64,000 bases of DNA from an uncultured Eubacteriales bacterium. Its GTDB lineage: Bacteria; Acidobacteriota; Aminicenantia; Aminicenantales; Aminicenantaceae. A model generated the notes under the pieces. That model made no database searches, was not told the origin of the DNA, and was given only the letters and a program-made list of their open reading frames with translations. Of this stretch, positions 37,040-59,553 are shown piece after piece (positions within the stretch are counted from its first letter, which is position 1; every line of letters starts with the position of its first letter). The stretch covers positions 14,495 through 78,494 of the forward strand of contig CAZRGM010000009.1 in NCBI GenBank assembly GCA_964599635.1, read 5' to 3'. The position numbers and the translations under genes were made by a program.

Positions 37040-37100
37040 TTTCCCATTCCCTATTTTTCACGTCTCGCTTTTCTCGCTCTTTCTATTCACAATTTACTAT
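37040..37100. repeat. Intergenic low-complexity repeat (TTCTCGCTCTTTCTATTCAC / CGTCTCGCTTTTCTCGC type)
   Basis: TTCCCATTCCCTATTTTTCACGTCTCGCTTTTCTCGCTCTTTCTATTCACAATTTAC has near-copies at 49050-49086 and at 52700-52770 and 52855-52905. Confidence 0.6.
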
Positions 37101-37649
37101 TTATTCATATCCATAAAACTTCAGCACATCATCCGCCACTCTCATTTCTCTTTTTAATTCAAAATATTTAGATTCAAATCTGGTTTTATAATGATGTCTC
37201 AAAACAATGATCCCTCCCTGACTCAGCAAGTCTCTCTTATAAAGAACTTTTAAAGGGTCCCTCTCACCCACCATTAAATACGGAGGGTCCAGAAATATCA
37301 GGTCAAAGATTTTCTTTTCCTTTGACAGCATGATGACAGCCCGATTGAACTCTTTATGGACAACCCGGGTTGAATCTTCAGCATCACACCTCCTGATATT
37401 GGTCTTTATGGCTTTGATAGCCGGATAATAATCATCTACAAAGGTAACTTCCTTAGCTCCTCGGCTTAAAGCTTCAATTCCTAAGGACCCGGTTCCAGCA
37501 AAGCCATCCAGAACAGAAATATCTGGAATATCCAAATGCACTATATTAAATAACACCTCCTTGAGTTTATGAGGTATCGGCCTGACTTTTTCATCCCGCA
37601 CATGTCTAAGGCGCTTTCCTTTGTATTTTCCGCTTATAACCCGAATCAT
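37101..37649 (-). CDS. rsmD: 16S rRNA (guanine966-N2)-methyltransferase
   Basis: 182 aa with RVISGKYKGKRL, DGFAGTGSLGIEALSRGA and IFLDPPY. Confidence 0.85.
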   Translation of the reverse strand: MIRVISGKYKGKRLRHVRDEKVRPIPHKLKEVLFNIVHLDIPDISVLDGFAGTGSLGIEALSRGAKEVTFVDDYYPAIKAIKTNIRRCDAEDSTRVVHKEFNRAVIMLSKEKKIFDLIFLDPPYLMVGERDPLKVLYKRDLLSQGGIIVLRHHYKTRFESKYFELKREMRVADDVLKFYGYE

Positions 37650-37673
37650 TTTATCATGGTTTATTCATAAAAT

Positions 37674-37793
37674 CAGTCTGCAACCTCTTCTCACATCTCC
37701 TGATTATTTGTCTTTTCATTTATTGTCATTATATCAAGTTTATTCCTTTATTCTTATTTTGATTTCTTTTTCTTTGCAGACTGCAACCTCTTT
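37674..37793 (-). promoter_or_regulatory. Extended -10 promoter candidate flanked by two 17-nt direct repeats
   Basis: CAGTCTGCAACCTCTTC (37674-37690) and CAGACTGCAACCTCTTT (37777-37793) flank the minus-strand TGATATAAT (37736-37728). The upstream copy forms the palindrome TTGCAGtCTGCAA. Confidence 0.3.
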
Positions 37794-38382
37794 AATAATA
37801 AAATATGGCTTTCCCACTTTCCGTGCGGACATCTTTGATTCCATAGGGAAGTTCATACCAATCATTTAAAGTCGTATTTTCAGTTCCTTTGAATTTGGAT
37901 GCTAAATAAATCACAGTATCCAGCAGCACAGAGTCAACAGGTTCTTTATTCAGAAAAAGCTCTTGAATCACTAACCGGGCAGCGCCTTGTTTGACTTTAA
38001 GAATTCCATTAAAATAAAAGACCATTTTAGGGTTGAGCAGCAAAGGAAGATTTTGACCTTTGAATTGAAGCAGAACCTTTCCCTCAATTCTATTTTTATC
38101 AAATAACTTCAATTTCAGCTCTTTCATCACATCTTCCTCTTGTTCAATCCTAAAAGCCAGATAGGAGTTAAGCTCGCTTTCACTGACCTTGACTTCCCGT
38201 AACGGACCGGAATACTCGTTTTCCGCCTCTGATTGAACCTTTTCAATAAGCTCCAGAACTCTTAACACCTCATCAAGAGAATAATCGCTCTGAGCCAAGC
38301 TGATTTGTGGAACCATGAGGTTCAATATGAAACAGCAAACAGCCATTAAAGCATATAAGTGTCTAAAAAAATGGTTCATCAT
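37792..38382 (-). CDS. Hypothetical secreted protein (196 aa)
   Basis: N-terminal signal-like segment LYALMAVCCFILNLMVPQISLAQS. No family recognised. Confidence 0.5.
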   Translation of the reverse strand: MMNHFFRHLYALMAVCCFILNLMVPQISLAQSDYSLDEVLRVLELIEKVQSEAENEYSGPLREVKVSESELNSYLAFRIEQEEDVMKELKLKLFDKNRIEGKVLLQFKGQNLPLLLNPKMVFYFNGILKVKQGAARLVIQELFLNKEPVDSVLLDTVIYLASKFKGTENTTLNDWYELPYGIKDVRTESGKAIFYY

Positions 38383-38420
38383 TCACTATCCCCTATTGAC
38401 CATTCACAATTCACCATTCT
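38383..38420. repeat. Heptamer array filling the whole intergenic spacer
   Basis: The minus-strand sense reads GAGAATG GTGAATT GTGAATG GTCAATA GGGGATA GTGAATG and runs directly into ATG 38382. Confidence 0.7.
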
Positions 38421-39242
38421 CTAATAATGAGTCAGAGTACCATCTTTTTTTGCTTTCTTCAATGCCAAACGGAACAAGGTGATACTTAAGGGGAAAAGAA
38501 TCACGGCAAATATGAGTAAAGCCATGATATCTGGAAAAATCTCAGAAAAGGATGCTGAAGTAATCATGCTTTTCCTCAGCCCTTCTAAAGAATAAGTAAT
38601 AGGAAGAAGATAAGATATCCATTTGATCCATGGAGGAAGGACCTGGATAGGAAAAAACACCCCACCCAGCAAGCCGGAAACACTTCCATAGATCCACGAA
38701 AAAGGATTCCCTTTTTTATAAACCAGAATAAAGCAGGCTGATAATATTCCGATACTTAAAAAGCATAATGCGGTTAAAATAAAAGTTATGATAGCACCCG
38801 GCCAGTTAATCTTTTCTATCTGCATTCCAAAAACCCATACAGCCAGAATGATTTGAAACACGGTGGAAACCACAGAAAAGAGAAAATAATACAAAGAAGA
38901 TCCAAATAAAATCACAGGGAGACTGGTTCTGGAGACCAAAATCGCCTCCAAAGTCCCGGTAACCTGAGCCTGCCGAATTATGGCTGGAAGATGCTCCTGG
39001 AACACAGCCAGAAGGCCTGAAAAGGCAATCCCTATGATCACAAAAGAAAAATAATCCCCTCCATAAGCATCCAGAACAGAAGAACTGTTCGGTGATATTA
39101 ATTTCGAAATAAAGAAAAAGGTGGCAGAAGAGAGGAAAATTCCGATAAAAGAGGCAATAAATGAAAATTTATAGCTGGCCTCCTCTAAAAAATCCCGCTT
39201 TAAAAAGGCATAAAGCTTCTCTATGAGCGCCACTGAAATCAT
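38421..39242 (-). CDS. ABC-2 type transporter permease
   Basis: 273 aa with about 6 predicted TM helices. Its start overlaps the stop of the ATPase gene by 4 nt. Confidence 0.7.
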   Translation of the reverse strand: MISVALIEKLYAFLKRDFLEEASYKFSFIASFIGIFLSSATFFFISKLISPNSSSVLDAYGGDYFSFVIIGIAFSGLLAVFQEHLPAIIRQAQVTGTLEAILVSRTSLPVILFGSSLYYFLFSVVSTVFQIILAVWVFGMQIEKINWPGAIITFILTALCFLSIGILSACFILVYKKGNPFSWIYGSVSGLLGGVFFPIQVLPPWIKWISYLLPITYSLEGLRKSMITSASFSEIFPDIMALLIFAVILFPLSITLFRLALKKAKKDGTLTHY

Positions 39243-40063
39243 CTCCCAAAACTTTCATGGTCTGCTGCAGCCTTTTTGACCGCTTTTTCATAGACCTGGT
39301 GTAGAGAATTTTTCCCTTGTTCTGTCAAGCTGGATACCGATCCTTGAGCCATGACCTGTCCCTCTACAATAATGGCTAAAGTGTGTGCAAAGTCCTGGGC
39401 TTCTTTCAGGTCATGAGTGGCCCAGAATACCGTCTTGCCTTGATTTTCAACCATCTCTTTTCTCAAAAACTTTCTTATGTTTTGGGCAGCTAGTGGATCC
39501 AAACTTCTCGTGGGTTCGTCAACAAATAAAATCTCTGGGTCTGTGAGGAGGGCTCTTGCAATGGCCATCATTTGCCTCATACCTGTGGAATAAGTATTGA
39601 ACCTTTGCTCAGCAGCTTTTTTCATTCCCACAAGATCTAAAACTTCCTGAATAATCTTCCTTCTTTTTGATGAAGGTATACTATTCAAAGCCGCAAAAAA
39701 ATCCAGATTCTGCAGACCCGTCAGCCTCCAATAAAAACTTCTCTCCTCACTTAAGGCAAAACCAATGTGTTTTTTGACCTCATCTGTTTCATGCTCCAAG
39801 TCACAGCCTTTGATGAAAACTTTTCCCTCATCAGGCAGCACAAGGGTTGAAAGAATCTTAATGAGAGTGGTCTTCCCGGCTCCATTAGGACCCATTAAAC
39901 AAAAGCACTGACCCGATTCCACTTCTAAATCCACCCCTCTTAAAGCTGTGGTCCATTTCCTTGCTAAAGGATGGAACAAAAGCTCTCTGTAACCTTTGAC
40001 CACAGGATAGACTTTTTTGAGAGATCTTACTTCTACAGCCTTCATCTTCTTATCCTGTCTCAA
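39239..40063 (-). CDS. ABC transporter ATP-binding protein
   Basis: Walker A GPNGAGKTT, signature-like YSTGMRQMMAIA, and Walker B ILFVDEPTRSLD. The start is probably MKAVEVRSL at 40045. Confidence 0.85.
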   Translation of the reverse strand: MRQDKKMKAVEVRSLKKVYPVVKGYRELLFHPLARKWTTALRGVDLEVESGQCFCLMGPNGAGKTTLIKILSTLVLPDEGKVFIKGCDLEHETDEVKKHIGFALSEERSFYWRLTGLQNLDFFAALNSIPSSKRRKIIQEVLDLVGMKKAAEQRFNTYSTGMRQMMAIARALLTDPEILFVDEPTRSLDPLAAQNIRKFLRKEMVENQGKTVFWATHDLKEAQDFAHTLAIIVEGQVMAQGSVSSLTEQGKNSLHQVYEKAVKKAAADHESFGR

Positions 40064-41225
40064 TCAATCTTCTAAAAATAAGATATAGGGGTCTCCAGAA
40101 ACGCCATAGATAATGAAGCCCCATTTTATACGAATGGGGAGAAATCCCATAATAAAAAGAGACCCAGGAACGGGGGGGAAAGAAAAAATTATAGAGTGCT
40201 TGAATAAATGGGCCTATTCTTCTCCTGTTCAGCACTGAAAAAAAAGTAGGAGCATGCATGGGAAACAGAAGCTTCTGTTGTCTGGACTTCACCAAATCTT
40301 GAGGCCAAAAAAAATGAAGCAGTCTTAGGTTCAGAGAAGAAATAGAAAATCGGCTTATGATATTCTCTGAAACTGTATTGGGCCAAAATTCATTCACCAG
40401 ATGCAGCCCATAGTAAACAGACGCTTCTATTTTCTCTCTCCTGCATATATCCAAGACCTTATTCCAGTTCAATTTATAGATAGAAATCATTTCTGCTATG
40501 TCTGTAAACCAATCCAACCGAGAATAAGAATGCTGCTGGGAATGAAGACAAAGAAGGCAAAGCTCATATTCAGGCGAAAGAATCTGAGCCGGAGAACCCT
40601 CTATGTCAATTTTCTGTATGCTTCTCCAAAGATCCTCCCTCATTGAAAACGGCATATGAAGACCCGGAAAATTATAATGAAGTTCCAGCTCAAGCTTTCC
40701 TTTTCTGTAGACAGGGCGGTAGGTCCAAAATATTTTCTCCCGCTCACTCAATTCACGACTGATATGCTCACCGGCTGCCTGAACAAAACCCAATCCTCGG
40801 AGTAATTCTTGAAATTCAGTTCTTTGGGAAGAATCAAGAAAAAGATCAACATCAATAAAAAATCTCAACCCAATATCTTTATAAAGCGTTTTTGCCAGCC
40901 TGGGCCCCTTCACTAACGCCACCCTCATTCCTGAATTCTCGATAGAATCCAGAACTGGTTTCAGCGCGTTGAGAAGATATAGATTCCGACCAAAATTTGT
41001 TATGTATATTCGATTGAGCTGACTGACAATCTCATCCGGAACTTTGTCTTCATACACCTTCAGATTTCGGTATAAAAGAGGGGAAACATTTTCTTTCTGA
41101 GCTCTTTTCAGAAGCTCATGCCAGTCCAAATCTTTATTTAATATTTGCTTGAATTCAGACTTTTGACTTGGATTCAGTTTGATCCTTGAGCCTAAAATAA
41201 GAAGCTTGACTTCAGGAGATAACAT
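40050..41225 (-). CDS. Uncharacterised nucleotidyltransferase family protein (NTP_transf_5-like)
   Basis: 391 aa. KENVSPLLYRNLK, FIDVDLFLD and HSQQHSY... fit the PF14907-type pattern as I remember it. Confidence 0.55.
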   Translation of the reverse strand: MLSPEVKLLILGSRIKLNPSQKSEFKQILNKDLDWHELLKRAQKENVSPLLYRNLKVYEDKVPDEIVSQLNRIYITNFGRNLYLLNALKPVLDSIENSGMRVALVKGPRLAKTLYKDIGLRFFIDVDLFLDSSQRTEFQELLRGLGFVQAAGEHISRELSEREKIFWTYRPVYRKGKLELELHYNFPGLHMPFSMREDLWRSIQKIDIEGSPAQILSPEYELCLLCLHSQQHSYSRLDWFTDIAEMISIYKLNWNKVLDICRREKIEASVYYGLHLVNEFWPNTVSENIISRFSISSLNLRLLHFFWPQDLVKSRQQKLLFPMHAPTFFSVLNRRRIGPFIQALYNFFFPPRSWVSFYYGISPHSYKMGLHYLWRFWRPLYLIFRRLIETG

Positions 41226-41302
41226 TCGTGCTCAAATTAGTAAAATAATGAATAATGAATGGTAAATTGTGAATGGATTTCTAGCGTTTTAGAACGTTTA
41301 AT

Positions 41303-41562
41303 TTAACCTGACCTATTCATAAAAAAATGGCGATGTTTTCATAATTCATTTATTCTCAACGATATACAGGACTTTTTCAAGAACAATTTCTTGAACATTT
41401 TTTCTGTTTGTATTTTAATTTTAATCGCCATTTTTTTACCTTAAAGGCGAGCCGATCTCACGGCATCTTCTTCGTACCAGGGCATTCGTAGTGAAGTACC
41501 ACGACTTCATGCCCCGTGCCTCGCATCTGCAGCAATCTCGGCTCGTGAATAATCCAGGTTTA
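41303..41562 (+). repeat. Family-2 foldback element, copy B (~260 nt)
   Basis: Collinear with copy A, with the same AAAAAAATGGCGAT / ATCGCCATTTTTTT pair and the same GGCGAGCCGATCT...CCAGGTT right arm. ORF 41491-41709 is in a different frame from the copy-A ORF, so the element is non-coding. Confidence 0.7.
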
Positions 41563-41579
41563 AATCAAATGATTAGATC

Positions 41580-42398
41580 TTATTTCCTTATAGGTGACAC
41601 ATCATCTGGTTCATCATCAGGCTCATTGAGAGTGACCCCCCCTATGACTAAAGCAAGTCCCACAGGAATCAAAAATATAGGGACAAGTCCTTTTCTTTTC
41701 ACCAGATAAACCAAGTCTCCGGGAGCCACATCTTCTTCCATATAGATAGCGACAATCTGTCCTTCTGTGGCTTTCTTAATGGGCTCGTCATTCAGGGTCA
41801 GAATTTTAACATATTGATAGAAATCAGTTTCAGGTTCATCCTCGTCAGGTGTTAGGATATGTATCTCATCATCTTTCCACAGCTCTATTTCTTCATCTTC
41901 TTCCTCATAGGTCATAATCTCTACGGTGGCTATCTGGGTATTTGGTTCATAAGAAATAACCAGGCCTACTAATTTTTCTCCCTCGTCGTTTCTAGCCTCA
42001 AACTTCTGTCCTGCCGCCTCTTGGCTTCCCTTGGTAAAAGTCTTCAGGGTTACAGATATTTTTCCTGTCTTTCCTGATCGGATCCCCACCAAATTTTCTG
42101 CGTTGTACCCACCATTCTCAGATTCAACCCCCAAGATATAAAGGCCTTTCTCTATTTTCTCGACTTTAAACACTCCATGATCGTCAGTTCCGGTGCTTTG
42201 ATAAACGTCACCCGATGAAACATTCCTGAGAGTGACTAAGGCTCCTTTAACAGGAGTTGTCCCGTCCTCACTAAAAATGAATCCCGTTAGGCTTCCTGTT
42301 TCTGGGCTCCCCGCTTTGGCTATATTGGGAAGGTACAAAACAACAAGAGATAAACACAATAGGATTGATGTTAATTTTTTATAGGCGCCTCTATTCAT
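41580..42398 (-). CDS. Secreted carboxypeptidase-regulatory-like (CarboxypepD_reg) domain protein with a C-terminal TM segment
   Basis: 272 aa with a signal peptide. GSLTGFIFSEDGTTPVKGALVTLRNVSSGDVYQSTGTDDHGVFKVEKIEKGLYILGVE is a typical CarboxypepD_reg fold signature. The C-terminal LVPIFLIPVGLALVIGGVTL is followed by an acidic tail. Confidence 0.6.
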   Translation of the reverse strand: MNRGAYKKLTSILLCLSLVVLYLPNIAKAGSPETGSLTGFIFSEDGTTPVKGALVTLRNVSSGDVYQSTGTDDHGVFKVEKIEKGLYILGVESENGGYNAENLVGIRSGKTGKISVTLKTFTKGSQEAAGQKFEARNDEGEKLVGLVISYEPNTQIATVEIMTYEEEDEEIELWKDDEIHILTPDEDEPETDFYQYVKILTLNDEPIKKATEGQIVAIYMEEDVAPGDLVYLVKRKGLVPIFLIPVGLALVIGGVTLNEPDDEPDDVSPIRK

Positions 42399-42420
42399 AT
42401 TTCCTCCTTAAGGTATATTT

Positions 42421-42449
42421 AATATAGACATAACAAATGTATTTGTCAA
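42421..42449 (-). promoter_or_regulatory. Strong sigma70-like promoter for gene 41580-42398
   Basis: The minus strand reads TTGACA (42449-42444), a 17-nt spacer, TATATT (42426-42421). AGGAGG follows 4 nt before ATG 42398. Confidence 0.5.
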
Positions 42450-42522
42450 TAAATTTTTTACATATTACCCATATATTCTCTATGACTTATAAGCCTACTA
42501 TGCCCATTAATCAGCCACCGTT

Positions 42523-44199
42523 TTATCCATTGTCTTTAACTATCCTCACAATTTCAATTTCTCTATTAATGGGTTTCAGCTCTAGAATATTTTCCCCTCT
42601 TTTGGTCATAAGTTCCAATCCTGAAATGCGGCCCTCATGGGCAACCTGTTCATCAATGACTCTCCCATTCAAAAAAACAGCCAACAAAGGACTCACCGAA
42701 TCTTTTTTCAGTTCAATATTGATAAAAATAGGTGACTCTTCAGCAAATAAAAGAGGAACTCCGTAGGTCTCCCCTTTTTTTATCTTTTTATGGCCAAATG
42801 ACATTATCTCCGGCATCAAAACTTTAGAAAGCCTCTCATCAATCTCTTTAATTTTTTCGATATCATTAAGACGCTCATAATTCTTATGCATTCTCAACAG
42901 GATCTCCACATTTTGAGGATCTCTATCCAGTGCTTTTCTATAAAAATCACCCGCATCATAAACAAAGTCTACAGCCTGATAAGAATCACCCACTATTTGC
43001 AAAAGTTTTACCAAATCGTCATGAGATCCAAAATCTCCGGAAAATAGAAGGCTCTCTACTTTGTCTCTTTGCTGAATGACTTCTCTGTATCGATGCTGTT
43101 TGAAATCAAATACGATACTGAAATAAAGGCGGGAAAAACTCTCGCTTCCTCCGGGTATGACTTCAAGTAAATTTCGGCCCCTCAAAAATCCTTCTAACTC
43201 CTCGATCTCCGCATCTTCATTTTCCATCTCTAAGTAAGTTTTGAGATGATTCTCCGCACCCTTCAATCCTTCAGACCTCTGAATTTCTAATTTTATCAGT
43301 CCCAAAAGAACTGATTTTTTGGTTTCGATAAGCTCTTTCTCCTCTATTAATTTTTCTCCGGTTAGGGATTGATAAAATTTTATATGGTTGAGCTGTCTCA
43401 AGCTGGATGAAAGATGACTTAAAGCATTTTTCATATGATAAATTCTGGCTTCATCCTGACCTTTATGGTAAAGATCTCTGGCTCTTTCATACTCCATGCT
43501 TTCAGCTTTTGAAAGCTTATCCAGCCTTTCACTCAGGTTGAGAGATCTTCCTCCTAAAAAATCAGCATACAGGCGAAATGCTTCAGCTTCTCGAGGAAGG
43601 ATCTGATTCATAACGGAATAGTCTTCAACATAAACCGCCCACACATGCATCACATCCATTAATCCCTGTCTTCCTTTGGCATCAATAACATCTTTCATCA
43701 TCTTGACAACATACTTTTTATCTTCTCCCTTTAATTCTTCCCAATTCTGCATCATTATCTTTCCTATCTCAAAATAAGCCTCTTCATCAAATGTGGTCAA
43801 AAGGGCCGCCTTTTTATACTGGTCATAATAATCGATCTCAACAGGTTGAAAATAATTCATATAAGAAAGTGCCTGGGCAAGGCGAAAATGAGCCGCATAG
43901 GACCCTGGATTTAAGCGGACTGCCTGAATAAAATTCTGTATCGATGTATTCAGATTCTCGTTTCCTTGGGGCCCATTTCCAGCATCCTTCACTCCTCTTT
44001 CGAAATAAGTCTTTCCCAGTTCATAATACACTTTATCATTGAAAGGATTTAACTGCTGAGACTTCTTGAGAATAAAGATCCTTTTTTCTGAATCAAGAGT
44101 CCTTTCCCCTTTATAATAGAGATGCACACTCCAGTACATATAGAAATTGATCGCCATCAGAAGCAAAATCCCAACGATTAAAGCCGTTTTTTTTTGCAT
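42523..44199 (-). CDS. Membrane-anchored TPR-repeat protein
   Basis: 558 aa with an N-terminal TM helix and repeated TPR-like 34-mers (YYELGKTYFERG, AHFRLAQALSYMNY, GDFYRKALDRDPQN). Confidence 0.6.
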   Translation of the reverse strand: MQKKTALIVGILLLMAINFYMYWSVHLYYKGERTLDSEKRIFILKKSQQLNPFNDKVYYELGKTYFERGVKDAGNGPQGNENLNTSIQNFIQAVRLNPGSYAAHFRLAQALSYMNYFQPVEIDYYDQYKKAALLTTFDEEAYFEIGKIMMQNWEELKGEDKKYVVKMMKDVIDAKGRQGLMDVMHVWAVYVEDYSVMNQILPREAEAFRLYADFLGGRSLNLSERLDKLSKAESMEYERARDLYHKGQDEARIYHMKNALSHLSSSLRQLNHIKFYQSLTGEKLIEEKELIETKKSVLLGLIKLEIQRSEGLKGAENHLKTYLEMENEDAEIEELEGFLRGRNLLEVIPGGSESFSRLYFSIVFDFKQHRYREVIQQRDKVESLLFSGDFGSHDDLVKLLQIVGDSYQAVDFVYDAGDFYRKALDRDPQNVEILLRMHKNYERLNDIEKIKEIDERLSKVLMPEIMSFGHKKIKKGETYGVPLLFAEESPIFINIELKKDSVSPLLAVFLNGRVIDEQVAHEGRISGLELMTKRGENILELKPINREIEIVRIVKDNG

Positions 44200-44243
44200 A
44201 ACTTTTTCTTATTTTAAAATATCTGCAATCCTTTTCTCTTCAG

Positions 44244-44314
44244 CTCTTTAGAGGAGAGCGAAGCCCGAACGGGAGAGAGACTCCTCGATGGGGAATCGAA
44301 CGGGTGACGAATCC
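44244..44314. repeat. Family-1 internal segment (fragment)
   Basis: CTCTTTAGAGGAGAGCGAAGCCCGAACGGGAGAGAGACTCCTCGATGGGGAATCGAACGGGTGACGAATCC differs at 5 of 72 positions from 19119-19190. Confidence 0.65.
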
Positions 44315-44380
44315 TCTGTTTTTTCCCCTTTAAATTTTTTGTGGAGCGCAAACCATGCCTATATTTCATAAAAATCATCT

Positions 44381-46668: not shown

Positions 46669-46724
46669 AACTCACGATTCTCCATTTTCTATCTTCCATT
46701 CACAATTCCCCATCCCCTATTCAC
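46669..46724. repeat. Heptamer array (8 units) filling the spacer and covering the upstream gene's stop codon
   Basis: The plus strand reads AACTCAC GATTCTC CATTTTC TATCTTC CATTCAC AATTCCC CATCCCC TATTCAC. Confidence 0.7.
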
Positions 46725-48991
46725 TTCTTCTGCTCGTAATAAGAACCAAGATAACCTTGATGTTCCGCAGAATAATATCCCCTTCCTCTGGTCCTCATTT
46801 CATTATAAACCACTCCTATAATGTCTGCCTTTACTTTTTCAAGAGCCCTGATGCTGTTCACATAGGCCTTCCGAGTGGTTTTCCCCACTTTTATGATGAA
46901 AACAGTCCCATCAGTCAATGATGAGACGATAGCTGAATCCACCACAGCCAAGATAGGAGGAGTGTCTATAAAAACAAAATCAAAACGCTCCTTGACAGCC
47001 TCAATCAATTCCCTCATCCTGGGTGTATCCATCAATTCCACCGGATTAGGAGGATGAGGCCCGCTGGTGATCACGGATATATTCTCAATTTTTGTTTCTT
47101 TCACAGCTTCATCAAGATCAACTTTCCCAGTCAAAAAGCTGCTCAATCCATCTAAGATGCTCAAATCAAACACTCTATGTAGCCTAGGTTTTCTCATGTC
47201 TCCATCAATCAACAGCACCTTCTTATTCAGCTGAGCAAATGAAACTGCCGTATTGACAAGGGTTGCTGTTTTTCCTTCCTGCGGAAAAGCACTGGTAAAA
47301 GAGATAGCTTTAGGGACATTCCCCACACGGGAAAAAAGAATAGAAGTCCTGAGGGTTCGATAACTTTCTGAAACAGATAACCGGGGATATTTATGATTGA
47401 CCATTTCAAACTGCTTGATATCTAAGCTTTGTTTTGGCTCATCAGTCCCATAGGAATACGAGGCATAGGCACTTCCTTTCCTCACCCCATCCTTTGAAAC
47501 AAAAGGAATCACTCCTAGGGACGGAAGTTCAATAAGTTTCTCAGCTTCCTCAGGTTCTTTGATGGTGTTATCCACATATTCCGCCAGAAATGCCAATCCC
47601 ACTCCCATAAAGAGCCCCAAAAGGATCGCCAGCATTAATGAACGGCTTTTATTAGGATAATAGGGAGCTGAAGGAACAAGAGCACTGTCAATGATTTTGA
47701 TATTGGAGGATTTAAGCCCTTTTAAACGGGCAGAAACAAGAGTCTCATTCTGTCTTGCAAGAAGAGAGTTCAACAGGTTTCGTTTGTTTTCTATTTCAAT
47801 TTTTAAGCTGTTATAAAGAATGGCATTATTATTCATCTCCATGACATCTTTTCTCTGTTCATTCAAAAGTCCACTCAGCTTACTTTCTTCTTTTAAAGCA
47901 GCTTTGTAATCAGACTCAGCGGCTTCAACCGCTTTTTGGATCTCTTCTTTAAGCTGGTTTCTCATTGAATCAATTTTGGCGCCCAGACTGATCATTTCGG
48001 GATAGCTGGGCTTAAACGTTTTTAATTTTTCCTGATAAGTATTCACCATTTGGTTGTATTCAGTCTTTAGATTCTGAATGACAGGATTGTTGATGTATTG
48101 AGGCATAGAATCAACTTCCAGACCACTGAGTTCTAAATAAGCCGATTCCGCCCGGATCCTCTCTATCTGAGCTTGAGTTAACGCGGTATTCAAATCCCCA
48201 AATTTCGAAACCACCGAGCTCTCTTTATCACTTAAATAAAGAAGTTCTTTCTCTTCTCCATAACGCTGAATTTCTCTTTCTTTCGCGGAAAGTTCAGTCC
48301 TTAACTGGGCTATTTGCTCGTTTAAAAACTCAGAAGCCTGCTGTGTGGCTTCATAGCGCATTTCTATGGAATAATTGAGAAACTCCTCCACCACCGTATT
48401 GACCACATCGGCTGCCAGCTGTGGATGTGGAGAGCTGTAGCTGACCCCAACCAGTCGAGTCTCTTCAATCGGTTGGACAGAAAGTCCCCCCAATACGGCA
48501 AAAGCATAAGCTTCATTTGGATTCCGCTCAAAGACTGACTCAGAATCAGTTTCCTCTTCAGAAGGTTTTTTCCTAAAAATCCATCTCAAAGTGATAAATT
48601 CCTTAAAAGTCTGAATGACATTGACTTTGGTTCCCTGAGAAGCATGTAGCTCTGGCCGGTCAGATAGATTCATTTTTCTGGAAACTCTCTCCGCCAGAGA
48701 ACGGCTGGATAAAAGCCTTAACTGAGTGTTAAAATAGGCTCCGGTAAAATCATATTGATAATAAGGAGCTGCAGCAAAAGTATCATTAATATTGAGCATA
48801 TTGGAGCTGGGATTCTCAATAATAATGGTTGCGGTCGCCTTATATAAAGGTACCCGAGTGAACAGATGAACCGCTGTGATAATCAATATAACAACCACAG
48901 CTGACACAATAATCCATTTTCTTTTAAGCGCAGTCCGCCAGATGTCGAGAAGGTCTATCTCTTTTTTACTTTGTTTATTTAAATTTTCCAT
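46721..48991 (-). CDS. Polysaccharide co-polymerase (Wzz/GNVR) fused to a BY-type tyrosine autokinase
   Basis: 756 aa. The N-terminal TM and chain-length-determinant region is followed by a long coiled coil and a second TM. Walker A is SAFPQEGKTAT, Walker A' LLIDGDMRKP and Walker B FVFIDTPP. The C-terminal Tyr cluster is RGYYSAEHQGYLGSYYEQ. Confidence 0.85.
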   Translation of the reverse strand: MENLNKQSKKEIDLLDIWRTALKRKWIIVSAVVVILIITAVHLFTRVPLYKATATIIIENPSSNMLNINDTFAAAPYYQYDFTGAYFNTQLRLLSSRSLAERVSRKMNLSDRPELHASQGTKVNVIQTFKEFITLRWIFRKKPSEEETDSESVFERNPNEAYAFAVLGGLSVQPIEETRLVGVSYSSPHPQLAADVVNTVVEEFLNYSIEMRYEATQQASEFLNEQIAQLRTELSAKEREIQRYGEEKELLYLSDKESSVVSKFGDLNTALTQAQIERIRAESAYLELSGLEVDSMPQYINNPVIQNLKTEYNQMVNTYQEKLKTFKPSYPEMISLGAKIDSMRNQLKEEIQKAVEAAESDYKAALKEESKLSGLLNEQRKDVMEMNNNAILYNSLKIEIENKRNLLNSLLARQNETLVSARLKGLKSSNIKIIDSALVPSAPYYPNKSRSLMLAILLGLFMGVGLAFLAEYVDNTIKEPEEAEKLIELPSLGVIPFVSKDGVRKGSAYASYSYGTDEPKQSLDIKQFEMVNHKYPRLSVSESYRTLRTSILFSRVGNVPKAISFTSAFPQEGKTATLVNTAVSFAQLNKKVLLIDGDMRKPRLHRVFDLSILDGLSSFLTGKVDLDEAVKETKIENISVITSGPHPPNPVELMDTPRMRELIEAVKERFDFVFIDTPPILAVVDSAIVSSLTDGTVFIIKVGKTTRKAYVNSIRALEKVKADIIGVVYNEMRTRGRGYYSAEHQGYLGSYYEQKK

Positions 48992-49014
48992 TTTTTTTAC
49001 TCTTTTTTTAATTT

Positions 49015-49086
49015 AATTCAACCACTCACAACTCACCGCTTTTTACGTCTCGCCTCAAACTTTTCTCGCTCTTTTTATTCGCAGTT
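49015..49086. repeat. Intergenic low-complexity repeat (CACTCAC AACTCAC ... TTTTCTCGCTCTTTTTATTC)
   Basis: It shares CGTCTCGCC...TTTTCTCGCTCTTT with 37066-37090 and the 52700-52900 region. Confidence 0.55.
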
Positions 49087-49090
49087 TTTA

Positions 49091-49933
49091 TTAAAATAGA
49101 GTTTCCGGTACAAACACAATATCATTCTCTTTTAACGGGATATCCTCAACCTTTCCTTTGATGATTGCCTTTACATTCACTTTAATCTCTTCCTCTTTTC
49201 CCTCTTCGCTCTTCCGTTTTATGACAACTCTTCTTTTCGCAGCCCTCTCCGAAAAACCTCCTGCCTGCGCAATAGCCTGCACCAGAGAAGGGATATTTGA
49301 TTTCTTCACCTCTAAGGCCCCAGGGTTCCCGACCTGTCCGAATACATAGACGTGAACGATCATATCAATAGGAATATTCACAATATCCCCAGGTTCTAAA
49401 GGAATGTTCAAACTGGAATCCCCTTTCAAGATCAAATCATCAATGGATATGTTTATAGATCTGCTTGTCCCATCTTTATTCTCGCGAACCACTATAATCT
49501 CATCTCCAGCTTGTTCGGTCATTCCTCCTGCCTGGGCAATCATGTGGAGCAAAGTCTGGCGACCCAAAACCTCATACCTCCCTGGTCGAGATACAGATCC
49601 TAAGATAGAAACCCTTTTGCTCTGATATTCTCTGATGAAAATAGTGATCTGGGGATTCTGGAGATACTTCTCTTCCAAAAGCCGCGTCAACTTCTGTTCG
49701 AGTTCAGATTTGGTAAGATCCTGAACTTCCATTTCTCCAAGTAAAGGGAGGGTGATATTTCCATCCTCTGAAACTCTGACAGTCTTATTCATCTCATCCA
49801 AACCAAAAACATTAATCTCCAGAAGGTCCTGAGGTCCTATTTTGTATTCAAGAGACTGCTTTTTCTGAGAAGAGAGAAATGAGGCAAAAATAAAGACACA
49901 CAAAAGAACATAAACGATTATTATTTTTTTCAT
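49091..49933 (-). CDS. Polysaccharide export protein (Wza-like: Poly_export plus SLBB domains)
   Basis: YKIGPQDLLEINVFG and GNITLPLLGEMEVQDLTKSELEQKL, with two soluble-ligand-binding beta-grasp repeats. The start is likely MKKIIIVYVLL at 49933; the tracked start 49972 lies inside repeat copy C. Confidence 0.8.
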   Translation of the reverse strand: MKKIIIVYVLLCVFIFASFLSSQKKQSLEYKIGPQDLLEINVFGLDEMNKTVRVSEDGNITLPLLGEMEVQDLTKSELEQKLTRLLEEKYLQNPQITIFIREYQSKRVSILGSVSRPGRYEVLGRQTLLHMIAQAGGMTEQAGDEIIVVRENKDGTSRSINISIDDLILKGDSSLNIPLEPGDIVNIPIDMIVHVYVFGQVGNPGALEVKKSNIPSLVQAIAQAGGFSERAAKRRVVIKRKSEEGKEEEIKVNVKAIIKGKVEDIPLKENDIVFVPETLF

Positions 49934-49956
49934 CCCGCTATCCTTATATCTAATCA

Positions 49957-50152
49957 AACCTGACCTATTCATAAAAAAATGGCGATTTTTTCATTAATAA
50001 TTTATTTTCAGCGATGTACAAGATTTTTTCAAAAACAATGACTTGAATATTTTTCCTATTTGTATTCTTATTTTAATCGCCATTTTTTTACCTCTCAGGC
50101 GAGCCGATCTCACGGCATCTGCCGCAACCTCGACTCGTTCATCATCCAGGTC
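49957..50152 (+). repeat. Family-2 foldback element, copy C (~196 nt), lacking the 60-nt module
   Basis: Collinear with A and B, but CGGCATCTGC is joined directly to CGCAACCTCGACTCG. Confidence 0.7.
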
Positions 50153-50267
50153 AAATTTCATGTCTATACAACTTCTCTTATTTTTTCATTATCCCCGATT
50201 ATATTAATGATTTATTATAATACATTAGAGAAATTAAAGAAACCTATCTCTTCCCCCTTTACTGGTT

Positions 50268-51437
50268 TTATAATTTGATGAGTGCTTTTAATGTCGGAAC
50301 CGGAGCTTTTTTGGCCAGCTCTAAAATCAAATCAACCTGCCAATCGAATTTTCCTTTTTCTCTAATCAGCGGGAAAACTCCATTGGCCTTGGCTAATTGA
50401 AAAAGTTTCTCGAGCTCTTTATCCTTCAACCGACCGCAGGCTTTCCGTGTATAATATCCTACGAGAAGTTCTCTCTTTATCTCATTTTTCCACTCTCTCT
50501 CATATTCTGAAAGGTCAGAAGACATCAATAAATCTGCAGGCAATTTTTTCAAAATTGTTTTGACTGCAATTTGAGAACAAAGAAGCCCATAATAAAGCCC
50601 TCCCCCAGTGGTGGTTTTAACCTGGGCTGCCGACTCTCCCACACAAAGCACCCGATCAGAATAGGTTTTTGAAACAGGTCCCTGGGCAATGATCTTACTC
50701 CTATATCTGGGTTTATGTTTGGCATTGGCTTTGTCTGGATACAATCGGGAAACAAGCTTTTTCAAATAAAAGCAGGCCTCTTTTTCAGTGATAAGTCCCA
50801 CCCGCACCAGCCTGTCATTGGTCGGAATCCCCCAGGCAAAAGCTCCTGGAGCCACTTCATTTCCCACAATCATAAAAGGGACTTCGTGTTCCCTGGCCTC
50901 AAGTTCCACTTGAGCCCCATTAATAAATTTTCTGGGGACGCCCAATCCTAATTTTTTATGAAGGCGGTACTCAACACCCGTAGCTAAAACAGCTATTTTG
51001 GCCTTATGCCTCTGTTTTTTGTTGTTTCTCGAAAATGAGGCCACCTCGACACCATCACTTTTTATTAGAACATCCTCTACTTTCACTCCCGTTAGAATTT
51101 CTGCTCCCCGGGATAAAGCCCTATGAGCCAAATTCAGGTCAAATTTTTTTCTGTCCACCACATAGGCAAACACTTCTCCATGGTCATAATGCAGGGCAGT
51201 TCCATAAGGAGAAATCATATTCATGCCTCTCAGTTCAGACAAAATAGAGTCTCTCTGAAGTCCAAATCTTTGAAAGGCTTCTTTTCCTAAAATTCCGGTG
51301 CATAAGATCTCTTCACCCACCGCTTTCTTCTTTTCAAAAACTTTAACATCCAGACCAGCTTCAGCTAAAAGTCCTGCCGTGTAGAGACCACTGGGGCCTC
51401 CTCCAATCACAATGATATCGTTCATTTGTTGAGCCAT
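50268..51437 (-). CDS. FAD-dependent oxidoreductase of the geranylgeranyl reductase family
   Basis: 389 aa with DIIVIGGGPSGLYTAGLLAEAGLDVKVFEKK (Rossmann FAD site) and VLCVGESAAQVKTTTGGG. Confidence 0.7.
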   Translation of the reverse strand: MAQQMNDIIVIGGGPSGLYTAGLLAEAGLDVKVFEKKKAVGEEILCTGILGKEAFQRFGLQRDSILSELRGMNMISPYGTALHYDHGEVFAYVVDRKKFDLNLAHRALSRGAEILTGVKVEDVLIKSDGVEVASFSRNNKKQRHKAKIAVLATGVEYRLHKKLGLGVPRKFINGAQVELEAREHEVPFMIVGNEVAPGAFAWGIPTNDRLVRVGLITEKEACFYLKKLVSRLYPDKANAKHKPRYRSKIIAQGPVSKTYSDRVLCVGESAAQVKTTTGGGLYYGLLCSQIAVKTILKKLPADLLMSSDLSEYEREWKNEIKRELLVGYYTRKACGRLKDKELEKLFQLAKANGVFPLIREKGKFDWQVDLILELAKKAPVPTLKALIKL

Positions 51438-51462
51438 TTTTTTTATGAATAGATCAGGTTAA
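51438..51462 (-). repeat. Solo 25-mer of the family-2 terminus abutting the start codon
   Basis: The minus strand reads TTAACCTGATCTATTCATAAAAAAA, immediately followed by ATG 51437. No SD is visible. Confidence 0.7.
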
Positions 51463-51514
51463 TTTTGCTGGAATTATACAAAAAAAATAATAAAATTCAA
51501 ACCTAAAAAAAGTC

Positions 51515-52753
51515 CTATTTTTCGTCTGCCTCCCATTTTCCCCTGAATGAAATCCAGAAAGAACGGAATATCAATTGAAGATCAAACCAGAAACTCTGCT
51601 TTTTAATATAAAAAACATCATACAGAAATTTTTCTGTTCTCGGTGCATCCGCAGGAAGAAAAACCTGGGCTAATCCAGTGAGCCCCGGTCTAACTTTTTG
51701 CCGTTCTTTATAACCAGGAATATCTTTCATCGACACGGCTTTCCGCTTCTCACCATTTTCCCTTTTCCTTGGTTCATTCGGCCTTTTCCATTTTCCATTT
51801 TCCATTTTCCGTCTTCCATTCACAATTCCCCATTCACCATTGACAATTTCCCGACTTTCAACTTCCTCTGGCCTTAATGCCCGAGGGCCCACAAAACTCA
51901 TGTCTCCTCTGAAGATATTCACAAGCTGGGGCAGCTCATCCATGGCCGTGGCTCTGAGCAGACGCCCTATGGGAGTCACTCTGGGATCATTCTTTCCAGC
52001 CTGCACAGGAGTGCCGTCTATTTCAGCATCTTTGATCATGGAGCGGAATTTGCAGGCTTTAAAGAGACGACCCCCTTTCCCTTCTCTTTCCTGAGTATAA
52101 AAAATGGAACCCTTATCTTCAAGCCAAATCAGCAAACCAAAGACAATCCAGAGAGGAGATGATAGGATGACCCCAAATCCAGAAACCAAAATATCAAAGG
52201 GCCTTTTTAAAAATAAACACCTCTTATCCATCAGCCATCCACTATTCCCCATCCTGTATAGGGACATCCCATAGATCACCGCCAGTACCAACGCTATCCC
52301 TATCGCATCCATCAAAATATCCATCATTGAAGAACTGCGGGACTTTAGGAAATACTGTAATGTCTCGTCCACGCACCCATAACCTATGGCAATCAAGGCC
52401 GTGTAGCCAGCCCAGGAATTTTTCCAAAGCTGCTTCTCATCTCCTCTAAAAAAACGGTAAATGAGAAAGGCCATGAGAGCATAAGCCGCCACATGAAGAA
52501 ATCGGCGCAAATAGATATAATAAAGACTTATCTTGTACCAGCTTATATCCTCTGCCAGCCACTTCCAGAATTTAATATTCAATCGGTACAAAAAAGGGCT
52601 GGCCAAAAAGCGGTTCCATAGAGGAAAAAGAAAAATCATCCATAAAACAGGCGGCAGCCAATATCTCAATCTTCTTATCTTACCTTTTACCAATTCTCCA
52701 ATCTCCGCTTTTCCCGTCTCGCTTTTCTTATTTCTCGCCTGTCTCACTTTCAA
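51515..52753 (-). CDS. Priming sugar-phosphate transferase (Bac_transf family) fused to an N-terminal VanZ-like domain, with a repeat-derived insertion
   Basis: Bac_transf blocks are KRPFDILVS, LFKACKFRSM, DPRVTPIGRLLRATAMDELPQL, GDMSFVGPRA and VRPGLTGLAQV. An extra ~44 aa lies between GPRA and RPGLTG. The first ~25 codons are encoded by intergenic-type repeats, so the true start is uncertain. Confidence 0.75.
   Translation of the reverse strand: MKVRQARNKKSETGKAEIGELVKGKIRRLRYWLPPVLWMIFLFPLWNRFLASPFLYRLNIKFWKWLAEDISWYKISLYYIYLRRFLHVAAYALMAFLIYRFFRGDEKQLWKNSWAGYTALIAIGYGCVDETLQYFLKSRSSSMMDILMDAIGIALVLAVIYGMSLYRMGNSGWLMDKRCLFLKRPFDILVSGFGVILSSPLWIVFGLLIWLEDKGSIFYTQEREGKGGRLFKACKFRSMIKDAEIDGTPVQAGKNDPRVTPIGRLLRATAMDELPQLVNIFRGDMSFVGPRALRPEEVESREIVNGEWGIVNGRRKMENGKWKRPNEPRKRENGEKRKAVSMKDIPGYKERQKVRPGLTGLAQVFLPADAPRTEKFLYDVFYIKKQSFWFDLQLIFRSFWISFRGKWEADEK
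51731..51862. repeat. Heptamer/low-complexity repeat inserted in frame inside the sugar transferase gene
   Basis: The plus strand reads ...TTCTCACCATTTTCCCTTTTCC...CCATTTTCCATTTTCCATTTTCCGTCTTCCATTCACAATTCCCCATTCACCATTGACAATTTCC. It encodes VESREIVNGEWGIVNGRRKMENGKWKRPNEPRKRENGEKRKAVS. Confidence 0.7.
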
Positions 52754-52874
52754 CTTTTCTCGCTCTTTTTATGACTCACCATTCACCACTCACAATTCCC
52801 CATTCACTGTTTTTTCCCAACGCAATTAACGCAACAAACGCTATAAACGCAAATCTTTCTCGCCTTTCTCGCTT
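52754..52874. repeat. Composite repeat spacer: heptamers plus a 4 x 9-nt tandem repeat
   Basis: TTTTCTCGCTCTTTTTATGACTCACCATTCACCACTCACAATTCCCCATTCAC, then AACGCAATT AACGCAACA AACGCTATA AACGCAAAT (52819-52854), then TTTCTCGCCTTTCTCGCTTTCAAC. Confidence 0.7.
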
Positions 52875-54104
52875 TCAACTTTTCTCGCTCTTTCTATTCA
52901 CCGTATTTATCAGCTCTTCATATTTATTAAGCACCACATCCCTAGCATAATTTTCTGCAACATAATTCCGGGCGTTCTGACCCATTTTTTCTGTGACTCC
53001 TTTTTCTTTTCTCAGCCTCTGAAACATTTTGACCATTCCCTGGATATCATCCGGCAGAATGTTTAATCCACAGTTCCCCTCTTGAATGATGCGGGCCACT
53101 TCAGATTGATCATCCGTAAATCCAATAATGGGGCGGCCTGCAGCCATATAGTGATAGAGCTTGGAAGGCACAGAAAGCTGAGTCTTTTTGATGTCCAGAG
53201 GAACCAGAAGCAGATCTGAAGCTCCTAAAAGAAGAGGCAGATCCTCATAAGGCTGGAAAGGAAGAAAGATTATATTTTTCAATTTCAACTGTTCTGCTTT
53301 TTCTATAAGAGCCGGCTTTTTTAATCCTTCTCCTGTGATAACCAGACGGAAATCCTCTTCATTTTCCATCAGTTTCGCCGCTTCCATCACTTTTTCCAGG
53401 GTCAAATAACTGCTCAGAGTCAGAGTGCCAGAATACAGGGCTACAAATTTATCCTCAAGAGAAAATTTTTGCGACAATGGATTATTCTTGGGATAGGGAC
53501 GCAAAAATTCAGTATCCACCCAGTTGGGAACAATATGAAGTCTTCCCTCATCCACATGCTTTTTCAAAAGATTCTGTCGAAATCCCTCGCTGATGACCGC
53601 GATTTCATCCGCCTGTTTGTAGATCCATTTTTCAAACTTCTGAGCCAAATCAATGGCCCATTTTTTCTTCAAAAGCCCTGATTCGATGGAAAGGTCAGGG
53701 TGAATATCCTGGACACTCATCAAAACATGGGCTTTCTTCCAGAGGCGGGCCAGCCATCCTACCATCCCCAGCTGAAGAGGAGGAAGCCTTAGAAAAAGCA
53801 TATCCCCTTTTTTGACTCTGCGGAGATTCTGTGCTGCCCAAAAAGCATAAAGAGTCCAGGCAATAAGTCTTCCTATGTGGTGGATCGTAAAATTGGTCCG
53901 GTACCGCCTCACCGTAAAGTTGTCTATTTTTTCTGTTGATAACAGGTTCCCTTTATAAGGCTTGTGATGAGGAGGCCGGGGAATGGTGGTGATGATTTCC
54001 ACCTCATAGCCTCTTGAACTGAGATAACGAGCCAGCTCATCCATTAAAATAGGCGCACTCCCGTATTCAGGAAGATAATACATAGTGTGGATATAAACCG
54101 TCAT
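52875..54104 (-). CDS. Glycosyltransferase family 4 (WcaI/WbuB-like)
   Basis: 409 aa with a GT-B fold pattern and E-x7-E-like region (LLLVPLDIKKTQLSVPSKLYHYMAAGRPIIG). The C-terminal residues VNRKSEKS are encoded by the repeat GGTGAATAGAAAGAGCGAGAAAAG. Confidence 0.75.
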   Translation of the reverse strand: MTVYIHTMYYLPEYGSAPILMDELARYLSSRGYEVEIITTIPRPPHHKPYKGNLLSTEKIDNFTVRRYRTNFTIHHIGRLIAWTLYAFWAAQNLRRVKKGDMLFLRLPPLQLGMVGWLARLWKKAHVLMSVQDIHPDLSIESGLLKKKWAIDLAQKFEKWIYKQADEIAVISEGFRQNLLKKHVDEGRLHIVPNWVDTEFLRPYPKNNPLSQKFSLEDKFVALYSGTLTLSSYLTLEKVMEAAKLMENEEDFRLVITGEGLKKPALIEKAEQLKLKNIIFLPFQPYEDLPLLLGASDLLLVPLDIKKTQLSVPSKLYHYMAAGRPIIGFTDDQSEVARIIQEGNCGLNILPDDIQGMVKMFQRLRKEKGVTEKMGQNARNYVAENYARDVVLNKYEELINTVNRKSEKS

Positions 54105-54168
54105 CCTTTACTCTTCACAATTTACCATTCACCATTTTCTATTGACCATTTTCCATTAATCATTCACC
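54105..54168. repeat. Heptamer array (9 units) spanning the spacer and the 3' end of the next gene
   Basis: The plus strand reads CCTTTAC TCTTCAC AATTTAC CATTCAC CATTTTC TATTGAC CATTTTC CATTAAT CATTCAC. Confidence 0.75.
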
Positions 54169-55349
54169 GCCTTTTTTGCCCACACGTAAATATAAGCAGC
54201 CGCAGGGATAAAAAGCAAAAGATCCACACCAAAAAATGCAGCGGTCGATTCGAAAAAACTCCTAGATGTTAAAAATCCTATAATCAAAACTGATTCAATC
54301 AAAAAAGGTCTATGCTCCCTATCCGCATCTTTAATCCGCCTGAGCACATTATTCTTTAAAATCACATACCAGATGCTGAAAACAGCAGCCAGAAAAAACA
54401 CAAGCCCCACAATACCTCCGTGCATTAGGGCATGCAAATAAGAATTGTGCATGTGCTGAGAATCAAGAAGGATCCGGTCCGCATGAAATCCCCATCCCAG
54501 AAAGGGAGATTTTTTAATCTCAATCACAGCCTGTTCCCAGGTTAACTGACGCCCTGTTAGGTTAACCAACTGCTCCAGGCTTCCATGGGCTCTTTCCTGA
54601 AAGCCCGCTCTCCAGAGAACATAGGCTGCGGCAGGGCCTAAAAACACAAACTGCCATCTCAGTCCCATAATATAGACAAGCAGCAATCCTGCCACAGCCA
54701 ATCCCAAAAAAGCAGTCCGGGATTGTGTCTGCATAATTGTATAGGTAGATAAAATTAGCGGGCCAATCCATAAATACCTCCAAACTCGTTTCTGGGATAA
54801 AAACCTCACACCCGCTATGATCATCAGCACAAGAGCAAACCGCGCCACTCCATTAGCCTTCATAATTCCCAATCCAAAAGGAAGCTCGTAAAACATGAAC
54901 CTCATATTCCCACCAAATCCATAACTATAAATTTCAGGTAAAAGAAAAATAAAAAAAAGTAGGATTGCAAAATAATTCACATAAAGGATTTTCTTTATCC
55001 GCTCTAAAACATCATCCCCTGAAAGAACAAGCCACAATGCCATGACAGGAGCTAAATAAATTCCTCCCCAATAGAGTGCTGTTGTTTTTTCTGGCGAAAA
55101 AAAAGAAACAGCCAGTCCAACCACACAGTAGTAAAAGAAAAATCCCACTGGATTGGAAAAAGAGGGCACTTTAGATCCAGCCAGAAGCATCCACATAAAG
55201 CATATATATAGGGATAAAAGCGGCAGAAAAGCCCGGGCTCCCTGAAAAAAAGCCAGAGGATCTGAAAACATGCTCCCTGTCACATTATAAAGTCCGGTAA
55301 ACAGTCCTCCCCATATCATCAGCCATAAAAAAACAGGAGCAGACAGCAT
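54156..55349 (-). CDS. O-antigen polymerase/ligase-like (Wzy family) membrane protein
   Basis: 397 aa, polytopic, with QSRTAFLGL and HMHNSYLHALMHGGIVG. Confidence 0.7.
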   Translation of the reverse strand: MLSAPVFLWLMIWGGLFTGLYNVTGSMFSDPLAFFQGARAFLPLLSLYICFMWMLLAGSKVPSFSNPVGFFFYYCVVGLAVSFFSPEKTTALYWGGIYLAPVMALWLVLSGDDVLERIKKILYVNYFAILLFFIFLLPEIYSYGFGGNMRFMFYELPFGLGIMKANGVARFALVLMIIAGVRFLSQKRVWRYLWIGPLILSTYTIMQTQSRTAFLGLAVAGLLLVYIMGLRWQFVFLGPAAAYVLWRAGFQERAHGSLEQLVNLTGRQLTWEQAVIEIKKSPFLGWGFHADRILLDSQHMHNSYLHALMHGGIVGLVFFLAAVFSIWYVILKNNVLRRIKDADREHRPFLIESVLIIGFLTSRSFFESTAAFFGVDLLLFIPAAAYIYVWAKKAVND

Positions 55350-55402
55350 GAATCTTTAAAAATGGTGAATGGTTAATGGTAATTTACAATTTTCCATTAA
55401 CC
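55350..55402. repeat. Heptamer repeats in inverted arrangement forming a 9-bp hairpin across a stop codon
   Basis: AAAAATG GTGAATG GTTAATG GTAATTT. GGTTAATGG (55371-55379) pairs with CCATTAACC (55394-55402) around a 14-nt loop, and the stop codon 55384-55386 sits in the loop. Confidence 0.6.
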
Positions 55403-58700: not shown

Positions 58701-58734
58701 AGTAAATTTTTACTTTGAATATTATAAGAGACCT

Positions 58735-59547: not shown

Positions 59548-59553
59548 CTTATA

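Follow-up and report, generated by a model that had tools for sequence, protein, structure and literature searches.

We analyzed a 64,000-nt stretch of DNA (the window; contig C9, bases 14495-78494) from the genome of an uncultured bacterium of the Aminicenantaceae, in which short spacers of a polysaccharide (exopolysaccharide, EPS, or capsule) locus carry tandem arrays of a heptanucleotide unit. Described by a position weight matrix (PWM), the unit reads [C/A/T]-A-T-T-N-A-C on the plus strand and G-T-N-A-A-T-[G/T/A] on the minus-strand mRNAs. We suggest, at a probability of about one half, that these arrays expanded in place from seeds formed where a stop codon meets the next start codon, that their orientation reflects what the operon tolerates, and that their effect on translational coupling is modulatory at most. 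The locus encodes a Wzz/tyrosine kinase, a CpsB phosphatase, Poly_export, VanZ-Bac_transf, GT4 and Wzy-like proteins, a flippase and methyltransferases, and the genome (2.78 Mb in 58 contigs, 39.6% GC) is 96% complete.

Arrays were located by direct reading of the sequence and with Tandem Repeats Finder (TRF). Strict 7-nt periodicity was seen where the original prediction had placed heptamer arrays from the letters alone (positions below); at 37040-37100 it is weak. For the genome-wide scan that the prediction had proposed, an array was defined as at least four units at period 7 with at most two mismatches each, chains of PWM matches served as a second method, and block shuffles and periods of 5, 6, 8, 9 and 10 served as controls. 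The scan found 30 arrays against 0-1 in shuffles and 0-3 at other periods, and the PWM chains gave 53 arrays against 2-3 in shuffles, which excludes chance and agrees with the definition of long simple sequence repeats (SSRs) as units of 5-11 nt in runs beyond chance. Nearly all arrays are intergenic by crude open reading frame (ORF) calls, and four units, or 28 nt, is the preferred size (32 of 53 arrays by PWM chain). At the EPS locus, 5 of 10 short same-strand spacers carry arrays versus 3 of 623 elsewhere (Fisher p = 1.7e-8). From 37.0 to 55.4 kb, all but one of seven same-strand spacers measuring at most 100 nt contain units (the exception is 51438-51514), in keeping with the earlier claim that arrays occupy almost every short spacer. 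Intergenic DNA as a whole showed no period-7 excess in its global autocorrelation, since the arrays make up too little of it, hence the targeted scans, and plain 7-mer over-representation did not single out the unit.

Three of the minus-strand arrays run in sense into an ATG, as had been predicted. The array at 38383-38420 (~5.5 units; PWM chain match at C9 52874-52915) fills the entire spacer between an ABC-2 permease gene and a 196-aa ORF, and its RNA is unstructured (z = -0.7). The array at 46669-46720 (7-8 units; sequence and PWM chain) fills the spacer between the Wzz/tyrosine kinase and CpsB genes, and its first unit contains the TGA stop of the upstream gene. The array at 54105-54168 (nine units; TRF, sequence and PWM chain) covers the 3' end of a Wzy-like gene as well as the spacer in front of a GT4 start codon. 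All three are thus forward arrays ending near a start without a canonical Shine-Dalgarno sequence: the AGGAGG-like sequence usual in this genome is absent there, and unit variants near start codons provide GGAG- or GGGG-like cores. GGTGA, formed at unit junctions, was tried as an alternative Shine-Dalgarno sequence and rejected; it pairs with the 16S rRNA 3' end, yet across the genome it shows no enrichment ahead of starts.

Comparison with congeners carries the case for growth in place. The congener G001 has an orthologous operon (63-85% amino acid identity) with nine spacer arrays, all in sense, and one of these stands directly behind the same stop codon in the Poly_export-to-Wzz spacer as the short window array at 49016-49039 (minus strand, ~3 units in sense; sequence), which adjoins a GCGAGA-type motif. 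At the Wzz-to-CpsB junction, the stop codon is followed directly by the start codon in three congeners and overlaps it in one, while the spacer measures ~10 nt (1.5 units) in another congener, ~28-37 nt in G001 and 52 nt in the window genome. The Wzy-to-GT4 spacers compared are 13 (no units), 10, 39, 62, 51 and 105 nt long. The comparison of array lengths among relatives that the original prediction called for therefore yields graded junctions, from 0 to 52 nt in the first case and from 10 to 105 nt in the second. A metagenome scan for the Wzz-CpsB junction recovered three near relatives only, none with an array and two with a 0-nt junction. Since congeners have 0-13-nt or overlapping stop/start junctions, the arrays are dispensable for the operon, and they have expanded separately in different lineages.

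From these junctions, the arrays seem to nucleate where a G followed by TGA (stop) and ATG (start) already spells one unit, so that a tight junction of the EPS operon would hold one ready unit from which an array could grow in place. Further copies may have been added by slippage or by multi-unit block copying, and modules may sometimes have been copied between spacers. In G001, 28-nt multi-unit block repeats are visible, and a composite module of 9-mers and heptamers sits one spacer further upstream than in the window genome; because this module occupies different neighboring spacers in the two species, copying between spacers probably occurs as well. Of the slippage-driven spread that had been proposed earlier, in-place expansion is thus retained through the graded congener series, but simple recent slippage is not, as neighboring units are no more alike than others (see below). 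The natural series at one junction (0, ~10, ~28-37 and 52 nt) is of value in that it points to where an array nucleates and to which orientation an operon tolerates. In four congeners (orthologous sites L171-L175; upstream of 49091 in the window), GGTGAAA, complementary to the 16S 3' end, lies 5-7 nt before the Wzz start and is possibly a non-canonical ribosome-binding site as well as a seed for the unit.

The orientation of the arrays bears on the mechanism. Across the operon contexts of two species we count ~24 sense versus 1-2 antisense arrays, orthologous arrays not being independent. The sense mRNA is composed of 38% A, 31% G, 30% U and 1.8% C and folds no better than shuffles (z about -0.6), and the antisense is its complement, C-rich and nearly G-free. 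Stop codons are present in all three sense frames of 4 of 5 arrays examined, the array within an ORF leaving one frame open, and ATG or GTG occurs in all frames of 5 of 5; the antisense offers no starts and almost no stops. Rho, which loads on unstructured, C-rich and G-poor RNA, is encoded in the genome. A sense copy would therefore end translation in every frame, offer a start in every frame and, being nearly C-free, form an unstructured and poor loading site for Rho, whereas an inverted copy would lengthen the upstream protein, give no start and present C-rich, G-free RNA resembling a rut site. Tolerance alone could explain the orientation bias through these differences in C content, stops, starts and suitability for Rho. 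A perfect array would also read as a row of six-codon mini-ORFs, with the stop of each one adjoining the start of the following one, and a termination-reinitiation relay is conceivable. A tuning effect of the arrays on translational coupling is likely. The growth series, together with a testable prediction about orientation and Rho, is in our view the main value of the locus.

Several observations weigh against expansion in place with tolerance. Tolerance alone does not account for the strong concentration of arrays in one operon, and contigs of public runs that cross the arrays show no length polymorphism, although contigs hide rare variants. Mismatches to the consensus at unit positions 1-7 number 54, 8, 4, 4, 70, 29 and 6 (chi-square p = 2e-35) under a detection rule that weighted all seven positions equally; neutral decay would not give so uneven a distribution, so some constraint acts on the core. 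Adjacent units share 4.92 of 7 positions, exactly as random units of other arrays do (4.92 of 7; permutation p = 0.44), so that recent simple slippage, which would give identical neighbors, is not supported and the most-alike neighbors expected of long SSRs are not seen.

Some of these data speak for another explanation, in which the core of the heptad serves as a recognition motif and the arrays are cis-acting RNA or DNA sites for an oligomeric factor or for ribosome standby, controlling EPS translation or transcript continuity. Position-specific conservation with two or three variable positions, neighbors no more alike than random units, the preference for the four-unit module and the enrichment in one operon are all as a binding site would have them, the same core and free positions recur across many phyla with reversed controls near zero, and the arrays abut starts, in line with the proposal made for the TAACTGA repeats (PMC4679880). 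We nevertheless regard this explanation as doubtful. The same operon works in congeners with 0-13-nt junctions, loci in other phyla lack a sense bias before starts (counts below), the genome has a canonical Shine-Dalgarno sequence and no enrichment of the unit-made GGTGA before starts, and no candidate factor was found.

The distribution of the heptad beyond the window genome bears on this point. In its own family, a four-unit pattern with at most two mismatches matched in 12 of 24 other genomes, with counts from 1 to ~220, while sister families had almost no matches and reversed-pattern controls were near zero. Within the phylum, 27 of 301 genomes had matches, again with controls near zero, and one named Pyrinomonadaceae genome had 139 against 2 in the control. 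One family of this phylum-level sample has arrays similar to those of named Pyrinomonadaceae, a hint that the host belongs to the Acidobacteriota. Across species genomes, this core heptad recurs in arrays in many phyla with its free positions at identical places, often as inverted pairs 20-50 nt apart, at a minimum of 120 loci and with reversed-pattern controls near zero; the matches listed include Pyrinomonadaceae, Chitinophagaceae, Saprospiraceae, cyanobacteria, Armatimonadota, Chloroflexota and others. Among these listed matches, 17 sense and 30 antisense arrays lie upstream of starts, and with no sense bias the constraint on the core is not a universal mRNA-sense function. The description of the repeat as lineage-specific thus stands in that it is patchy within the family and nearly absent from sister families, but not in that arrays of the same core occur in many phyla. 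Position-specific conservation, together with the recurrence of this core in distant phyla, is an argument against neutral slippage as the full explanation. A bolder and quite unlikely idea is that the A-T-T-N-A-C-N heptad, typically as inverted pairs of four-unit 28-nt arms, is a cross-phylum element whose invariant core a conserved cellular machine or an unrecognized mobile-element protein would recognize, and that the EPS arrays would be its domesticated form, acting as Rho-proof, structure-free stop/restart relays between cistrons.

Within the window genome, arrays occur in two settings, as 28-nt arms in inverted pairs of elements resembling miniature inverted-repeat transposable elements (MITEs), versus long one-directional arrays in operon spacers. 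The one-directional arrays are intercistronic, have 5-10 units and are almost private to the one polysaccharide locus. About half of all copies are four-unit 28-nt arms, inverted, within two dispersed families with conserved flanks, and there are about ten such inverted pairs in the genome. The earlier view of the arrays as operon-spacer repeats therefore applies to the EPS operon but not to the roughly half that are arms of dispersed hairpin elements. One family (X) includes the pair at 354-416 just 3' of tRNA-Ser (430-516), where an array had been noted before. Its two 28-nt arms (TRF) fold significantly when 340-425 is taken (-22.8 kcal/mol, z = -3.6). The other family is a foldback element of ~260 nt (41303-41562 and 49957-50152 in the window), at whose edge a four-unit array of opposite polarity lies on the plus strand (41248-41275; sequence and PWM chain; RNA fold 0 kcal/mol). 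The foldback element has 10-17 times the base depth in metagenome contigs and contigs break there, which marks it as dispersed and high in copy number. Shortened derivatives of it lie just upstream of the Wzz start in congeners. A short inverted pair at 55365-55401 (sequence and PWM chain) spans the stop codon of a GT4 gene; of the hairpin that had been described there, the 9-bp stem exists, but its stability (-12.5 kcal/mol, z = -1.5) is not significantly above shuffles.

The spacer arrays could accordingly be solo arms or debris of mobile MITE-like hairpin elements that inserted into the spacers. Repetitive extragenic palindromes (REP), their doublets (REPIN) and bacterial interspersed mosaic elements (BIME) are interspersed intergenic hairpins with inverted arms of 20-30 nt that form mosaics with other modules. 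The window elements resemble them in inverted arms, intergenic dispersal and mosaics, and inverted doublet hairpins are dispersed in intergenic DNA here too, but the window arms are internally periodic heptamers and no link was found to a REP-associated tyrosine transposase (RAYT). Such an origin would be in line with the share of arrays that are inverted arms within families with conserved flanks, with one such element being multi-copy and at contig ends in G001, with the depth of the foldback element, and with the composite module that occupies different spacers in two species. We consider it unlikely, as the graded series begins at junctions that already spell one unit and the operon arrays are long, one-directional and without element flanks. 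Moreover, the RAYT-like gene of the window is bordered by a different 30-mer and not by the repeat itself, and a Y1 (RAYT/IS200-type) transposase was rejected as mobilizer since array content is uncorrelated with it across the family: array-free genomes have Y1_Tnp, and some array-bearing ones lack it.

In several places the arrays have become protein. A sense array of ten units lies in frame within the Bac_transf domain of the priming transferase (51782-51851, minus strand; TRF); one unit is present there in four perfect copies, translation gives VNGEW-like repeats, and the only frame without a stop is the one that the ORF uses. Unit-encoded VNGEW-like tails also form the C-termini of several GT4 and VanZ proteins. 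VanZ and Bac_transf form one 412-aa ORF here (51515-52753) and two ORFs in G001 (C32 9325-10261, L161; part of this gene is masked with N). In G001 an intergenic heptamer array separates the two, whereas in the window genome a decayed remnant of about three units (52223-52252, minus strand; identified by comparison with G001) links both domains, which looks like a repeat-mediated gene fusion or fission. The net effect of the arrays is that spacers lengthen and that proteins gain new C-terminal tails, a linker between domains and an in-frame insertion, and the locus is thus also of interest for showing arrays as they turn into protein.

The position of these tracts raises the possibility of phase variation, in which EPS genes would be switched or tuned as 7-nt units are gained or lost; the in-frame tract of the priming transferase would be the most direct route. 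Heptanucleotide tracts are reportedly named in connection with the phase-variable O-acetyltransferase NeuO of the K1 capsule and with phase variation of the Haemophilus influenzae adhesin HMW1A. A surface-polysaccharide locus with a tract inside the priming-transferase ORF is a fitting location, the four perfect copies within Bac_transf fit as well, and array lengths vary between species. Yet the crossing contigs of public runs, which drop rare variants, contain no array indels, and most units are imperfect with differing neighbors, which lowers slippage rates, so we hold contingency tracts to be very unlikely.

The original prediction had also named assembly artefacts of low-complexity reads as a possible cause, and the probability of this is negligible. 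One JGI and two Logan assemblies repeat the arrays at 46669-46720 and 48992-49090 letter for letter, and long contigs of runs X1, X2 and X3 traverse both with 0 differences and no indels (X1 and X2 are possibly the source of the window DNA and not independent), which excludes an artefact; arrays are also found in orthologous loci of other species. The contigs of X4 are short and cross at most the 52754-52874 spacer. Nothing in favor of an artefact was found, and the one observation that touches on it is that the contigs of one run end within the perfect tract at 51816-51832. Read-layout joints near 51816-51841 and 52818-52875 could reflect either variants in unit number or cross-matches from other arrays.

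For many prokaryotes, heptanucleotides are cited as the most abundant class of long SSRs, and their origin has been ascribed to polymerase slippage as a proposal (Mrazek 2007, cited in PMC4679880 and PMC4692102). A locus with a visible growth series bears on this common but unexplained class of repeats. Our arrays belong to this heptanucleotide SSR family, alongside the short tandemly repeated repetitive (STRR) sequences, the G-rich repeats of Xanthomonas and the pre-start heptamers of Beggiatoaceae, and have a unit of their own; full-text literature searches returned no paper with this unit in tandem, in agreement with the earlier statement that no description of it is known. STRRs belong to heterocystous cyanobacteria; for Calothrix PCC 7601, three such tandem heptanucleotides are on record (cited in PMC4692102). 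The earlier analogy to them holds in kind, since both are tandem 7-nt units, mostly intergenic and at many loci per genome, but the window arrays are concentrated in one operon and tied to hairpin elements, and their host is not a cyanobacterium, as the Photo_RC profile (PF00124) has no match in this 96% complete genome and control matches in Synechococcus. The described STRR units presumably do not match the window PWM; one of them is probably one base away.

The TAACTGA direct repeats of marine Beggiatoaceae (169 sets over many gene classes; MacGregor 2015, PMC4679880) are similar in that forward heptamers lie within a few nucleotides of starts, overlap the place of the ribosome-binding site, sometimes fall in ORFs and are patchy across phyla. 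They differ in their unit, which the window PWM does not match, and the window arrays in their operon-spacer form are almost confined to one EPS locus and have heterogeneous units. GGGAATC-type repeats in Xanthomonas and GGGGA(T/C)T repeats in Nostoc are G-rich and quadruplex-capable (Rehm 2015, PMC4692102). These share with our arrays two free positions, a size of mostly four units, some inverted pairs, and positions that related species have in common despite differences in length and sequence, whereas the window unit is without G-runs and its sense strand consists of A, G and U with almost no C. Geobacter metallireducens has a multicopy module of four tandem heptanucleotides between and within genes, put forward as putative regulatory elements, and a class of five tandem heptanucleotides drawn as looping across two strands (PMC2700814); the four-heptanucleotide multicopy module resembles ours, but its units are GC-rich.

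The remaining repeats of the locus are less regular or of other classes. About five sense units at 52776-52812 (minus strand; TRF and sequence) lie within the 121-nt spacer between a GT4 gene and VanZ/Bac_transf, as part of a composite module with 9-mer repeats (52813-52852) and GCGAGA-type motifs, and the minus-strand spacer at 37040-37100 (sequence) combines degenerate sense units with such a motif. This second recurring motif, already noted in the original prediction, is a 14-nt sequence (AAGAGCGAGAAAAG) with four exact copies at the EPS locus (37062-37081, 49060-49073, 52754-52767 and 52879-52892) and a single further copy in the genome (G000 C4 32156-32169). The second tandem class has a 9-nt unit (TTGCGTTNA-like) and is found, besides 52813-52852, in the congener G001 and at C9 86267-86452, C9 129227-129305, C9 130692-130814 and C5 8695-8746 of the window genome (G000). 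Its two-unit pattern has 75 matches genome-wide (overlapping, several per array), 40 of them intergenic, and the 9-mers are often fused with heptamer arrays as one composite module. At Rfam gathering thresholds the window contains the SRP RNA and two tRNAs only, and the arrays match no RNA family. In the upstream half of the polysaccharide locus (56630-62832), gene junctions are tight or overlapping and carry no arrays, and GC falls to 0.30 at ~58-60 kb, which suggests that this low-GC half is a variable, possibly acquired segment.

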